Below are positions 15,552 to 18,961 of a DNA stretch of 64,000 bases, piece after piece. Source of the DNA: Nitrosopumilus sp. (GTDB taxonomy: Archaea > Thermoproteota > Nitrososphaeria > Nitrososphaerales > Nitrosopumilaceae); contig OZ245003.1 in NCBI GenBank assembly GCA_965223425.1, forward strand, positions 1,952,001 through 2,016,000, in the 5' to 3' direction. A program made the translations under genes and the position numbers. The stretch's first letter is position 1. Each line of letters begins with the position of its first letter. The notes under the pieces are model-generated. The model was not told where the DNA came from, searched no databases, and worked only from the letters and a program-made list of their open reading frames with translations.

Positions 15552-17306
15552 TCATGTGTTGGAATGAACCTCATATTTTAGATATATTGGTTTTTCCTTT
15601 ACGTCCAAAATATCTAATATTTTTTTGAATTCATCAAAATCCTTGATATCGTCTCTTCCTTCCTTGATAGCTTGATCTACAAAGGATTCTAGTGATTGCA
15701 TGCTATACATTACCGTATACATGATAAATAATTTTCTATTCAAGGTCAAAGATGTCTTTTCATGCATATAGTCTTGAACTATTCGTCTGCTCTGATTCCT
15801 GCTATCTGTCTTACAATTATCTTGCTCGAACTGCAAAATACGTTTTTCATGCATGATGATGCGATGATATAGTTCGCCAAAATCCTTAGAGGGTAGTAAA
15901 TCTTGGACGGATCTACCATGTTGTTTTTTATTGTATCTTGATAAGATATTGATTCTCTCTGATGCCTTTGAAAACTCGTATGTAAGTGATTCTGGATATA
16001 GCAATGCTTGTTTTTCATACGAATCCTTGGGACTGTGACCAAGAACATGATCTGCAACGTCAGGCCTGCATCCAGAATCAATCAGTGTGGATTTTAACAG
16101 ATCCCGCATTTCATGTGGAGTGCACCGATTCATTGTATGATCACCACGTAGTAATTCTACTCTTGCAACCAGCTTGTGAAATCTTCTTGATAGCCAGTTT
16201 ACTGTAATCGGTTTTTTGGCTCTGTTTACAAATAATGCCTCACCAACTTTTGGTTTTGCATGGCGGACATGCAGGTATTCTACTAGAGCAACAACTGCAT
16301 CTGTGTCAAGAAATCCCATATGCAAAAAATCTGTCTTTGTTCTTCTCAACTGTATTGGTACTGAAGTATTTTTGACATCCCATAATTCTGGTTTATCTGA
16401 TTGAAAGTGCTCTACAAGCTGTTCCCATACCTCAAAATTGAATCTGTCTGCAAACGTTGAGCTGTCAAGTCCCCTCTGGAATTTGCATAAAAATACCGCT
16501 TTCTCTATTGGCTGTATGTTTCTAATGGTGAGAATTTTTTGTAGAGTTTCAATGGATAGGGGAGCAGTTGGTATGTTTTTTGTTAATCTAATTCGAGATT
16601 TAAAATAAAATATAATCTCTGATTCGTTTTCCCGAAAAAATGATCTTATTGCATACATGGAATTTTTTACCAGATGTGGTTTCTCATCAAAGGCAATTTT
16701 ACCCAAATACTCCTTTATCTGCCGGGCACACTGACTCGGTACTATTTCGTCATGTACGGATCCCAGGCTTGCAGACTCCATCTGTTCTACGGCCTTTATG
16801 GCATACATCTCAGAGGCATCGATTTTCACATCGTATCTGTCAAGCAGGCTGTGGACGCGGTTTATCACGCGTGTCCTGTCCTGTACGGTCCTGATCCTCT
16901 GTCTGACCATGGCCCGGACTCCTCTTGTGTCAGCTGACGGCACATAACACTCTGGTATTGAATCCATCCTCAATACGTTTGCTATCTTTTGTGCGTCAAT
17001 CTTGTCTGTCTTCTTTCCCGTCTTTGCAATTATTGCCATCTTGTAGGTGTTGGCAAGCTTTATGTCGATTCCATGTCTCTCAAAGGCGCCGTATGTGATG
17101 TTCCACATGTTGCCCGTCGTCTCGCATGCTGCCTGACATCTTCTGGCAGAATACCTGAGTGCCGTCTGTTCTGCGAATCTGTCTGCATCTGAGACGGTGT
17201 TTTGATACTGGCCAGTATGCAAAACCTTTCCCTTCCCGTCCATGACGCATACGTCACATTTTCTCTTTCCAATGTCTATTCCTATGCTGATTGTTCCTTT
17301 GCTCAT
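15552..17306 (-). CDS. Chimeric ORF: IS110 transposase N-terminal DEDD domain fused to a tyrosine recombinase domain
   Basis: Start ATG 17306 with GGAGGTGA ribosome-binding site. GIDIG, ACETTG, KTDKID (IS110) to about 16715, then an AT-rich part with RGLD, R.KT, TPHEMR, LGH, SY (tyrosine recombinase motifs). Confidence 0.8.
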   Translation of the reverse strand: MSKGTISIGIDIGKRKCDVCVMDGKGKVLHTGQYQNTVSDADRFAEQTALRYSARRCQAACETTGNMWNITYGAFERHGIDIKLANTYKMAIIAKTGKKTDKIDAQKIANVLRMDSIPECYVPSADTRGVRAMVRQRIRTVQDRTRVINRVHSLLDRYDVKIDASEMYAIKAVEQMESASLGSVHDEIVPSQCARQIKEYLGKIAFDEKPHLVKNSMYAIRSFFRENESEIIFYFKSRIRLTKNIPTAPLSIETLQKILTIRNIQPIEKAVFLCKFQRGLDSSTFADRFNFEVWEQLVEHFQSDKPELWDVKNTSVPIQLRRTKTDFLHMGFLDTDAVVALVEYLHVRHAKPKVGEALFVNRAKKPITVNWLSRRFHKLVARVELLRGDHTMNRCTPHEMRDLLKSTLIDSGCRPDVADHVLGHSPKDSYEKQALLYPESLTYEFSKASERINILSRYNKKQHGRSVQDLLPSKDFGELYHRIIMHEKRILQFEQDNCKTDSRNQSRRIVQDYMHEKTSLTLNRKLFIMYTVMYSMQSLESFVDQAIKEGRDDIKDFDEFKKILDILDVKEKPIYLKYEVHSNT

Positions 17307-17488
17307 CCTTCTATCACCTCCTTTCGGATCTTTGACGGATCGGAAGCTGCATACACCTATCAGGGCGCAAGGCCCAGTCACACAGCAGCTCGGATTGCCC
17401 CATTCAAGATCAAGGGCGCATGGCCCATACGTACACAGGGGTCGATTCATCACTACAACTACGACGAGGTGGTTATCATGTGTTCAAG
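16715..17488 (-). mobile_element. Truncated IS110-family element (left non-coding end plus 5' half of transposase)
   Basis: DEDD RuvC-like motifs and GC shift; the C-terminal Transposase_20 domain and right end are absent; boundaries approximate. Confidence 0.8.
17322..17470 (-). ncRNA. Putative IS110 bridge-RNA-like structured RNA
   Basis: 5' hairpin with G-U pairs followed by two stems with large internal loops, each capped by a GGGC-N5-GCCC hairpin, directly upstream of the IS110 ATG. Folded by eye only. Confidence 0.6.
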
Positions 17489-18961
17489 CTAAGGAACATT
17501 CATGATTCCTTCTTTGATCAGAAACTGTATTCCTCGAATGAAAGAGTCATCGTCTATTTGTCCTGCTGCCCACCACTCTGCATTGTTTTTAATCCAAGAT
17601 GGGATTTCATTTGAACCAGAACCAGTATTGGATGTTGGCGGAATCTTTATGATTCCTTCTTTGATCAGAAACTGTATTCCTCGAATGAAAGAGTCATCGT
17701 CTATTTGTCCTGCTGCCCACCACTCTGCATTGTTTTTAATCCATGGCGGTATTTCAGAATAGGACACATCATTATCACTTGATTCTTCAAGAAGCGGATT
17801 CTCTGCAATCTCAACTTCCACTATCACATATCCGCCCAATTCAGAATTTGGTACTTCATATTCGTATCCTGTGCCGTGAACAAATATTGCATAACGGACA
17901 GTGCCTGCCTTTTCTTCTATTGGAAGAAGAATGTGGGCCTGGCCAAACCCGTTAAACAGATCTGCACGTCCAATGTCTTTGGCATACGAGCGAATTCTGT
18001 TGTTATCCTCATCTACTACCCAGATGTCATAATGAACCTGATCAACAAATTCCACTTCATTGTACTTGTTCATGAAATTTATTTTCCAGTCAATGTTGCA
18101 GCCCTCAATAGGTACCTCCGGAGAATAGTTGTACTGTACCAGCATGGAAAATGTGTTTGTGGATGCACGGCCACTCACATAATCATGAAATACGGTTGGA
18201 CATCCCAGCAGCTGTTCTTTTTTGACTGTTGATTCAACATCTCTGAAAGGATCATCTGTAACGTTTTCTTCATAATCTAACAAAGTGTACTGATGCATTA
18301 TTGGGGCAATGCCTGTTGTGACCCATGCAAAAGTAAGTGCCTTGAGGGGGAAAGGAAAATCATCCAGTATCCAAATCTCATTATTGTTTCCGCTGTACCA
18401 CCCAACTACAACGGCATCAGCAGTTCCTGCAGGAGTGTTTATCGTCTCCACTCGTTTTGGAATTAGCTGGGCGCCTCCAATGGCTGCAATCTTTCCCCAT
18501 GCGGCATCCCGGAATTCCTTTGGCCCGTGAACTCTATCATCTTCATTTGCAGTGGCAAAAGCAGACAGCCAGCTCAATGAGGACTTGAATCCAATTGCAT
18601 AGTCAAAAAGATCATCATCAAACAAAAAGGGGTTGGGGGCAACCTTGCCAAGCCCCATCGAGCCTTTGATGATCTTATTGCCGTCAATGACTACAACCTT
18701 TGCATCCCACAATGACTCACTTTCATTTTGTATCTCTCCTTTGATCCACATCTTCAGTTTGATTGGTGCACAGTCATTGAGATCTATTTCACACAAAGAA
18801 TACTCAAAGTAATCTCCAATTTTTAGTCCCTCGCCTGAATACCAAGAGCCGTCAACATCAACGCCGCCTGATGTTTGAACGCCCTGGCCAAAAGAGAGGT
18901 TTGAAAATGCAGGAATCGCACCTAAAATTAAAACTGACGCAACAATCAATACTAGTCTCAA
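17489..18961 (-). CDS. Secreted/surface protein with duplicated thaumarchaeal C-terminal IPxWIKNNA.WW..G.I.D..F..GIQ.LI domain
   Basis: Signal peptide; two copies of the characteristic Nitrosopumilus-type C-terminal motif. Confidence 0.85.
   Translation of the reverse strand: MRLVLIVASVLILGAIPAFSNLSFGQGVQTSGGVDVDGSWYSGEGLKIGDYFEYSLCEIDLNDCAPIKLKMWIKGEIQNESESLWDAKVVVIDGNKIIKGSMGLGKVAPNPFLFDDDLFDYAIGFKSSLSWLSAFATANEDDRVHGPKEFRDAAWGKIAAIGGAQLIPKRVETINTPAGTADAVVVGWYSGNNNEIWILDDFPFPLKALTFAWVTTGIAPIMHQYTLLDYEENVTDDPFRDVESTVKKEQLLGCPTVFHDYVSGRASTNTFSMLVQYNYSPEVPIEGCNIDWKINFMNKYNEVEFVDQVHYDIWVVDEDNNRIRSYAKDIGRADLFNGFGQAHILLPIEEKAGTVRYAIFVHGTGYEYEVPNSELGGYVIVEVEIAENPLLEESSDNDVSYSEIPPWIKNNAEWWAAGQIDDDSFIRGIQFLIKEGIIKIPPTSNTGSGSNEIPSWIKNNAEWWAAGQIDDDSFIRGIQFLIKEGIMNVP
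17502..17743. repeat. 95-bp identical direct repeat (17502-17596 and 17649-17743)
   Basis: Nucleotide-identical copies 147 bp apart encoding the duplicated C-terminal domain. Confidence 0.9.

Follow-up and report, generated by a model that had tools for sequence, protein, structure and literature searches.

We analysed a window of 64,000 nt from Nitrosopumilus sp. (GCA_965223425.1, OZ245003.1:1,952,001-2,016,000, forward strand; positions below follow window numbering), in which positions 17345-17484 on the minus strand form the left end of an insertion sequence of the IS110 family. From sequence comparison, we consider it very probable that this stretch encodes a bridge (seek) RNA, carried in the left end of a Nitrosopumilaceae element that would be guided to its target by one internal-loop module (module 1) and to its donor by a second (module 2). 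The source genome (G000; 2.64 Mb, 2 contigs) holds eight copies of the left end and four short fragments. One of the eight copies is intact (G000:C1:2063375-2064777, 1403 bp), and its recombinase of 363 amino acids (aa) carries both DEDD_Tnp_IS110 and Transposase_20 (99.6 and 65.5 bits), placing it in the IS110 family in the Pfam sense. Besides this copy and the one in the window, four are interrupted by other insertion sequences and two are truncated.

The window copy is 98.6% alike to the intact copy over bases 1 to ~775 and departs from it after ...AGATAAAGGAG at 16710. Its open reading frame (ORF) starting at 17306 encodes DEDD_Tnp_IS110 (aa 8-158) followed by Phage_integrase, with no Transposase_20 found by Pfam. 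Because the right end and the C-terminal domain of the recombinase are lost, this copy is unable to move alone; it is probably an orphan. The non-coding left end spans 179 nt upstream of the ATG and the right end of the element 129 nt, and the window copy directly follows a co-oriented ORF on the same strand (17489-18961), whose stop codon TAG sits within the left target TAGCT. The features are, all on the minus strand:

16710..17484, minus strand: truncated IS110-family copy, with the left end and ~60% of the recombinase gene counted from its start; lacks the right part and the right end
17304..17321, minus strand: ribosome-binding motif GGAGGUGA (17321-17314) and ATG (17306) of the recombinase-derived ORF 15552-17306
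17335..17450, minus strand: closing stem round both modules, AUG.AUC (17450-17448, 17446-17444) with GAU.CGU (17341-17339, 17337-17335)
17345..17390, minus strand: module 2, consisting of AGCUGC, UGUGUGACU, GGGC-CUUGC-GCCC, UGAUAGGUGUAU and GCAGCU; outer stem AGCUGC/GCAGCU
17351..17362, minus strand: module 2 3' strand UGAUAGGUGUAU, in which AUAGG-UG equals the last five right-end bases plus the core
17376..17384, minus strand: module 2 5' strand UGUGUGACU, in which UGUGU is the reverse complement of left-end bases 2-6 (ACACA)
17398..17441, minus strand: module 1, consisting of CCCC, UGUGUACGUAU, GGGC-CAUGC-GCCC, UUGAUCUUGAAU and GGGG; outer stem CCCC/GGGG, stems covary
17402..17413, minus strand: module 1 3' strand UUGAUCUUGAAU, putative left-target guide, with AUCU, core UG and then AA, the first two element bases
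17427..17437, minus strand: module 1 5' strand UGUGUACGUAU, putative right-target guide, in which GUACG(+U) complements the top strand on the right of the core
17447..17467, minus strand: 5' hairpin UCGUCG-UAGUUGUAG-UGAUGA, with two G-U pairs
17468..17479, minus strand: left subterminal inverted repeat ATGATAACCACC, starting at element base 6, with its partner GGTGGTTAACAT in the right end of intact copies
17485..17486, minus strand: core dinucleotide TG, found once when the site is empty and at each of the two junctions when it is filled
17487..17491, minus strand: left target flank TAGCT, up to which the flanks of the copies diverge; overlaps the stop codon region of ORF 17489-18961

Alignment of the 12 genomic copies and fragments placed the first element base at 17484, directly after a TG (17486-17485), so that the boundary described as apparent in the first-pass annotation of this DNA is a real one. 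The empty site reads ...TAGCT-TG-TTGCATAAC... and the filled site of the intact copy ...TAGCT-TG-AACACATG...AACATAGG-TG-TTGCATAAC, with the right end closing in CATAGG; TG is single in the empty site and double in the filled one and is therefore the core. The intact copy is inserted in the first bases of a DDE-type insertion sequence of ~1.22 kb (Pfam DDE_Tnp_1) whose other end is an inverted copy, TAGTG-TG-TTGCATAAC. Since the two ends of the DDE element carry inverted copies, the target is its terminal inverted repeat (TIR). The left half of this TIR-type target, TAGCT-TG, is also present unoccupied elsewhere in G000, where 28 unoccupied sites of the TAG(C/T)TTGTTGCATAAC type occur with at most one mismatch. 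Two other copies (850532 and 2135839) occupy a different repeat, GGCATCT-TG-CGCACAAAGG, three further copies of which are empty. The subterminal inverted repeats of the element are 11-13 bp long, with GGTGGTTAACAT placed before the last five element bases, and the left and right ends covary across homologs (e.g. ATGTAAACATCC, ATGAAAGACGCCC, ATGTAAAAGTCTT).

Inverted TAGTTTGTTGCATAAC end pairs spaced ~80 bp apart were also observed in G000 (C1:128844-128921, 459247-459324, 948568-948645, 2098312-2098389 and others). These pairs are derivatives, resembling miniature inverted-repeat transposable elements (MITEs), of the DDE element whose inverted repeat is naturally targeted by the AGUU and AGCU guide alleles described below.

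Correspondence of loop strands with insertion sites and element ends

Homologs were collected by a protein search of genome contigs, which returned three loci in metagenome-assembled genomes of Nitrosopumilaceae (69-70% identity in the best segment) with the same leader, and by a covariance model (R1) built from the 11 closest sequences. R1 matched 20 of 151 genomes across the class Nitrososphaeria (per family 15/80, 1/3, 1/9 and 2/17), a count that takes in G000 and the unpublished genome G132, the locus of which was left out of the analysis. Among the 35 matches, the module 1 loops were the most variable part of the RNA (30 of 35 sequences distinct on each strand), and the module 2 loops were less variable (22 and 20 distinct).

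We found that the 3' loop of module 1 shared a longest common string of at least 8 nt with the left junction in 27 of 34 non-redundant elements from Nitrososphaeria genomes, vs. 17 of 1110 non-cognate pairs, and the matching elements represent 24 of 30 distinct loops. On the right side, the reverse complement of the 5' loop matched TG plus the right flank exactly over at least 5 nt at 8 of 16 junctions vs. 7 of 236 non-cognate pairs, with G-U pairs uncounted. In the distant homologs the 5' loop ends in CAU, with CA opposite the TG core and the guide abutting it (TG-CGTAAT at L045, TG-CTGGAA at L055 and TG-GTTAT at L063). In the window, the UA of the UGUGUACGUAU strand faces the TG core through a G-U pair. 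The AA that follows the core UG in the 3' strand is handshake-like, and in homologs the two to three bases after UG track the first element bases (AA, AAU, ACU). The string CTTGAA, which the first-pass annotation had noticed both at 17488-17483 and in the 3' loop of module 1 and had called weak evidence, is part of a real guide made up of left target, TG and the first two element bases.

The same code can be read in other copies of the genome. In the intact copy, the 3' strand of module 1 carries AGCU-UG-AA, equal to the left target, the core and the first two element bases, and the 5' strand carries AUGCA, which is reverse-complementary to TGCAT of the right target. Sister copy 850532, with a loop of the window type (AUCU-UG-AA, GUACG-UA), sits at ATCT-TG-CGCACA, which it matches perfectly on the left and with which it pairs at five of six positions on the right. 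Left-guide alleles in G000 comprise AGC, AGU and AUC before UUG, and the same three trinucleotides are found at the left flanks of the copies and at natural sites. For the window RNA the predicted target is ATCT-TG-CGTACA, to which the closest natural site is the repeat GGCATCT-TG-CGCACAAAGG (two occupied, three empty), and the sister alleles (AGCU or AGUU with AUGCA) are predicted to aim at the inverted repeat TAG(C/T)T-TG-TTGCATAAC of the DDE-type insertion sequence and its MITE-like derivatives.

Module 2 corresponds to the ends of the element itself. Its 5' strand tracks the left end (AAGACA/UGUCU, AATACA/UGUAU, ACTTTA/UAAAG, ACCTTA/UAAGG) and matched it over at least 5 nt in 15 of 24 elements vs. 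54 of 486 non-cognate pairs. Its 3' loop varies together with the right end, which reads ATAGG, ATAGA or ATGAG before TG and closes intact copies with ...AACATAGG-TG. Right ends were sought through the module 2 7-mer 0.9-1.7 kb downstream; the 7-mer recurred 1.26-1.55 kb downstream in 18 of 35 loci, always adjoining the complement of the left inverted repeat.

We found the same loop code in a haloarchaeal relative, the best plasmid match (Halorubrum ezzemoulense Fb21 megaplasmid NZ_CP034941.1, 330.5-331.9 kb; 34.7% identity over the aligned stretch), which is annotated merely as 'IS110 family transposase'. Its left junction, TCTGT-TG-ACTCG, equals the loop UCUGU-UG-ACU, and at its right junction, CATAGG-TG-AAATCC, the loop GGAUUU-CA is complementary to TG-AAATCC. 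The second module contains AUAGG-UG-AA, of which AUAGG-UG is the right end plus core, and CGAGU is complementary to the start of the element. The core is TG, the subterminal inverted repeat is 17 bp long and begins with ATG, and the 230-nt left end folds with z = -4.3. These guide matches were identified by eye and by folding; an R1 search of the locus found no RNA, the best match lying at an irrelevant place (E = 0.17). Like the Nitrosopumilus element, the Halorubrum one has its non-coding region upstream and a 5' strand ending in CA; unlike it, it has an extra hairpin within module 2 and a longer left end. In an Afipia plasmid relative (32.6% identity), ends and guides were not readable by eye. 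Across G000, the 34 elements and Halorubrum, module 1 tracks the insertion site and module 2 the element ends, in agreement with the initial suggestion of a bridge RNA with two programmable loops; comparing loops with insertion sites had been put forward there as a check, and the left and right counts given above came out in its favor.

Covariation of the RNA structure

The RNA consists of two internal-loop modules inside a long-range closing stem, and the helices and loops of module 1 (17441-17398) and module 2 (17390-17345) lie on the minus strand where they had been drawn. In the alignment of the 35 matches, fitted to the model, pairing holds in 91.8% of cells, and 15 of the 24 pairs vary on both sides (none of 500 shuffles equal; slid controls 23-50%). 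Because this alignment was fitted to the model, 27 of the 35 sequences were also aligned plainly with MAFFT and tested in the same way, with near-duplicates and the degenerate L057, L059 and L068 left out. Module stems were paired in 90.7% of cells (0 of 500 shuffles equal), a figure for which pairs 58-105 and 120-186 were taken in the wrong register, depressing the percentages of helix 1 and helix 3 and leaving the conclusion unaffected. The inner stem of module 2 covaries at four of four pairs. RNAalifold recovered all four module stems on the MAFFT alignment and also the closing stem, in which 88% of cells are paired and all six pairs are compensatory (0 of 500 shuffles equal; slid controls 21-34%). 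These results show that the stems covary on both alignments beyond any of the 500 shuffles, the conservation across homologs that the first-pass annotation had asked about.

Two smaller helices fared less well. The sequence of the 5' hairpin is present at 17467-17447, and its pairing reaches 76.5% of cells in the model-fitted alignment; on the independent MAFFT alignment the hairpin as drawn is weakly supported (66.4% vs. 62.5% in shuffles, and 54% when slid by -3). Its 3' arm and the outer part of the closing stem occupy some of the same bases. A small GAUC/GAUC hairpin proposed after module 2 is not conserved in the alignment, and its 5' arm is taken by the covarying closing stem. The ribosome-binding motif GGAGGUGA was correctly placed at 17321-17314, ahead of the ATG at 17306, and is kept in most aligned homologs. 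Right after module 2, CUUCC (17342-17346, minus strand) is complementary to the GGAGG of this motif (17317-17321), and the minimum free energy (MFE) fold pairs the region; such pairing may link folding or processing of the RNA with translation of the recombinase.

Proposed mechanism and alternative explanations

Comparison of copies and homologs establishes how the RNA is built, that TG is the core and that the four loop strands correspond to target and donor, and the activities that would connect them can be proposed from bacterial systems. By analogy with IS621 and ISEc11/ISEc21, the element would excise as a circle with a right end-TG-left end junction (...AACATAGG-TG-AACACATGAT...), and a DEDD/Ser recombinase would bind the RNA, which bacterial systems suggest would be expressed in a possibly junction-dependent way. 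Module 2 would read the joined ends of the element, its 3' strand AUAGG-UG pairing with the bottom strand, and module 1 would read the insertion site, its 3' strand carrying the left-target sequence and its 5' strand pairing with the top strand right of the core. The loops would bring the circle junction and the target together, with strand exchange at TG, again as in IS621 and ISEc11/ISEc21. The window copy would at most supply RNA in trans to the one intact copy.

Two sequences in the right end were observed beside this scheme. The right end of the intact copy (L002:2782-2910; also L026-L028 around 2620-2710) contains a conserved AGCTATAAAT ~100 nt before the end, and TTAACATA lies inside the right inverted repeat, ~25 nt upstream of the start of the 5' hairpin in a circle. 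Either could be a candidate archaeal TATA box that ties expression of the RNA to the circle junction.

Several observations weigh against the bridge RNA reading. Seven of the 34 elements miss in the left-side comparison, as do 8 of 16 in the right-side one, and the AUGCA allele fits the TIR target only with a one-base shift or a bulge relative to the register of the homologs. Among nine G000 copies or fragments that retain the loop, the guide agrees with its own flank in five and disagrees in four; in the window copy, the guide AUCUUG and the flank AGCTTG are equal at five of six positions and differ at one. Such disagreement could stem from RNAs that act in trans, from recombination among the copies or from tolerance of mismatches. 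With respect to structure, the module stems are invariant among the 11 closest sequences, so that covariation there is uninformative and support for the stems comes only from more distant homologs, and one of the two structural alignments is model-fitted. The 201-nt stretch alone gave an MFE of -53.9 kcal/mol (z = +0.66), with 150 of 200 shuffles folding as well or better, and Rfam release 15 returned matches at chance level only, the best being a trypanosomatid snoRNA model (20.1 bits, E = 2.8). Since the lone fold and Rfam give no signal, the case rests on copies and homologs. Binding by the recombinase, circle formation and cleavage at TG are steps that we infer by analogy.

The RNA gene in the window could also be a dead relic within a real family, a fossil without a circle junction and maybe without a promoter that has no present role, and we give this a chance falling somewhat short of even. 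The copy breaks off at 16710 and lacks both a right end and Transposase_20, only one of the eight copies is intact, and in IS621 and ISEc21, according to the portions of the sources available to us, the promoter is rebuilt at the circle junction (PMC11208160, PMC11208158, PMC11187229). However, all stems and both loops of the window copy are intact, with differences from the intact copy confined to loops and linkers, read-through transcription is possible from the same-strand ORF, whose end lies 3 bases ahead of the element, and guide alleles that mismatch their own flanks suggest RNAs acting in trans between copies. With an intact gene placed directly behind a co-oriented ORF, the window RNA may or may not still be made.

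Other explanations would assign the structure or the matches to something other than a guide. It is very improbable that the structure serves in cis only, as a 5' leader controlling how the recombinase mRNA is translated or how stable it is: it does lie immediately upstream of the ribosome-binding motif, and CUUCC (17346-17342) could pair with GGAGG in a region that is paired in the MFE fold, but a leader gives no reason for loops that covary with the target flanks on both sides and with both element ends, nor for covarying stems that enclose exactly those loops. Slimmer still is the chance that the matches between loops and ends act at the DNA level, as internal copies of the ends serving as recombinase binding sites with no involvement of RNA. 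The loop strings AUAGGUG and UGUGU are indeed copies or reverse copies of end sequences, and the left-end fragment at C1:367312 stops within the DNA that encodes the 3' loop of module 1; yet the stems covary via G-U intermediates, which pair on this strand alone, the variable loop tracks the target flank, which is outside the element, and the same layout was found by experiment to be RNA-based in IS621, ISEc11 and ISEc21, in the parts of the reports at hand (PMC11208160, PMC11208158, PMC11187229).

That solo left-end fragment (L037; G000:C1:367312-367434) was noted in its own right, as it breaks off within the DNA for the 3' loop of module 1 (…AGTTTGAAT) and runs straight on into GCATAACACGCCTAAGCC, the right half of the TIR-type target. 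The arrangement suggests a deletion running from the guide-encoding DNA to the right junction, and the join lies 1 or 2 bases away from a clean TG exchange. In the window, the ORF at 15552-17306 (minus strand, 584 aa) fuses the DEDD half of the IS110 recombinase at 16710 to a tyrosine-recombinase (Phage_integrase) domain. The fusion is absent from the other seven copies and looks like an accident of truncation and not a designed hybrid recombinase. Guided recombination as the cause of the break at 16710 was considered and is unsupported, as neither a TG core nor a guide-like signature occurs there. No remnant of the right target was found near the truncated copy (TTGCATAAC occurs twice in the window, as expected by chance, and neither occurrence is at the relevant place). 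Elsewhere in the genome, an insertion sequence of 1,132 bp with two transposase-like ORFs (24 BLAST matches in G000, ~20 of them full length) splits two copies of the bridge RNA element at the same position (L005:2106-3237, i.e. G000:C1:851137-852268, and G000:C1:2134103-2135233). Two further copies hold different inserts of ~1.1-1.35 kb, and nested insertion sequences fill the genome. The 490-aa ORF upstream of the element has a tandem duplication of a segment of ~45 aa at its end (…IP.WIKNNAEWWAAGQIDDDSFIRGIQFLIKEGI… twice; 17489-17760, minus strand).

To our knowledge, bridge or seek RNAs are the only guides that specify both recombination partners, and those that we know to have been characterised are from bacterial elements only. 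Among the matches listed in the literature, we found no bridge or seek RNA paper on Thaumarchaeota or Nitrososphaeria, and Supplementary Table 5 and Data 2 of Durrant et al. and Table 3 of Vaysset et al. may hold predictions. The family described here is a well-supported archaeal example, found in about one in eight sampled Nitrososphaeria genomes and a haloarchaeon. The principle itself is not new, the mechanism being known from bacteria, and what is seen here is a mixture of features of two described types. With an RNA position of the IS110 type and a guide order of the IS1111 type, it offers a natural test of what sets guide order, and it provides natural retargeting events that can be read within one genome. 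Part of the landscape of nested insertion sequences in the genome is also explained by this element, which parasitises other elements at their ends.

More broadly, we regard it as an evenly balanced proposition that a distinct lineage of RNA-guided recombinases is common to Nitrososphaeria and Halobacteria. Its RNA would be encoded in the left end and have two internal loops, like that of IS621; strand order and long subterminal repeats would be those of IS1111, the core would be TG, and a closing stem would be added. In this proposition, the guide would have been naturally re-aimed at least three times in one genome, its targets being inverted repeats of other insertion sequences, MITE-like elements and one further repeat, and the RNAs would act in trans between copies, as appears from several copies that occupy sites fitting the guide of a sibling and not their own. 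If it is true, these elements would constitute a compact, naturally multiplexed archaeal system of programmable recombinases, and would be evidence that guide order follows the recombinase lineage and not the position of the RNA gene.

Comparison with IS621 and IS1111-type elements

In the available text on IS621, the bottom-strand guides (left target guide, A50-U58, and left donor guide) are on the 5' side of the loops and the top-strand guides (right target guide, G77-G80, and right donor guide), together with handshake bases, on the 3' side; the core is CT, and subterminal repeats in the IS110 group are 2-3 bp long (Durrant et al. 2024, PMC11208160; Hiraizumi et al. 2024, PMC11208158). Set against these descriptions, the archaeal element resembles IS621 in that its RNA lies in the left end, upstream of a recombinase with DEDD and Transposase_20 domains, and forms two stem-loops that each contain an internal loop, variable in the first (target) and conserved in the second (donor). 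Each loop likewise reads both DNA strands round the core dinucleotide, and two bases of the 3' strand past the core match the partner DNA, comparable to the handshake guides (PMC11208160, PMC11208158). In contrast to IS621, the order is reversed, with the top-strand guide on the 5' side of both loops in the archaeal RNA, the core is TG, the subterminal repeats are 11-13 bp long, and there is a covarying closing stem, none being seen in the IS621 description as far as the text at hand goes (PMC11208160, PMC11208158). The host, moreover, is an archaeon. The RNA-DNA geometry is IS621-like only with the DNA turned round relative to the genes of the element.

The reversed order is that of the other described type. 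In the sections available from Siddiquee et al. 2024 (PMC11187229), seekRNAs of the IS1111 type have the top-strand match 5' of the bottom-strand match, whereas in ISEc21 (IS110 type) it is 3'; IS1111-type elements (ISEc11, ISPa11, ISKpn4) have subterminal repeats of 7-17 bp and an RNA downstream of the gene, upstream RNAs being treated as exceptions only (ISMtsp17, and also ISHvo10 and ISAcp5, each of which has a non-coding region at either end). The accessible part of Durrant et al. 2024 (PMC11208160) describes a multi-loop for the donor guides in many IS1111 members. Consistent with the IS1111 type, the archaeal RNA has its top-strand guide 5' of the bottom-strand guide, the repeats of 11-13 bp fall within 7-17 bp (17 bp being reached in Halorubrum), and the recombinase has the GL-P----SG motif in the form GLCPAIRQSG (PMC11187229). 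It departs from that type, as those texts portray it, in that the RNA lies upstream of the recombinase gene (PMC11187229), the donor guides are in a simple internal loop and not a multi-loop (PMC11208160), and the recombinase has 363 aa vs. 330-350 (PMC11187229).

The choice of target also has a counterpart, as the archaeal element, inserted in the terminal inverted repeat of another mobile element, resembles IS4321 and IS5075, which are said, going by the title of Partridge and Hall's 2003 paper, to target a site of this kind. Annotations of the plasmid relatives do not separate IS110 from IS1111, giving only 'IS110 family transposase' or other names of insertion sequences. Because one defining feature of each described type fails, we file the family as a variant, which, judged on its sequence features and with the recombinase compared by the GL-P----SG motif only, combines polarity and ends like those of IS1111 with the RNA position and two simple loops of IS110, and adds a closing stem.

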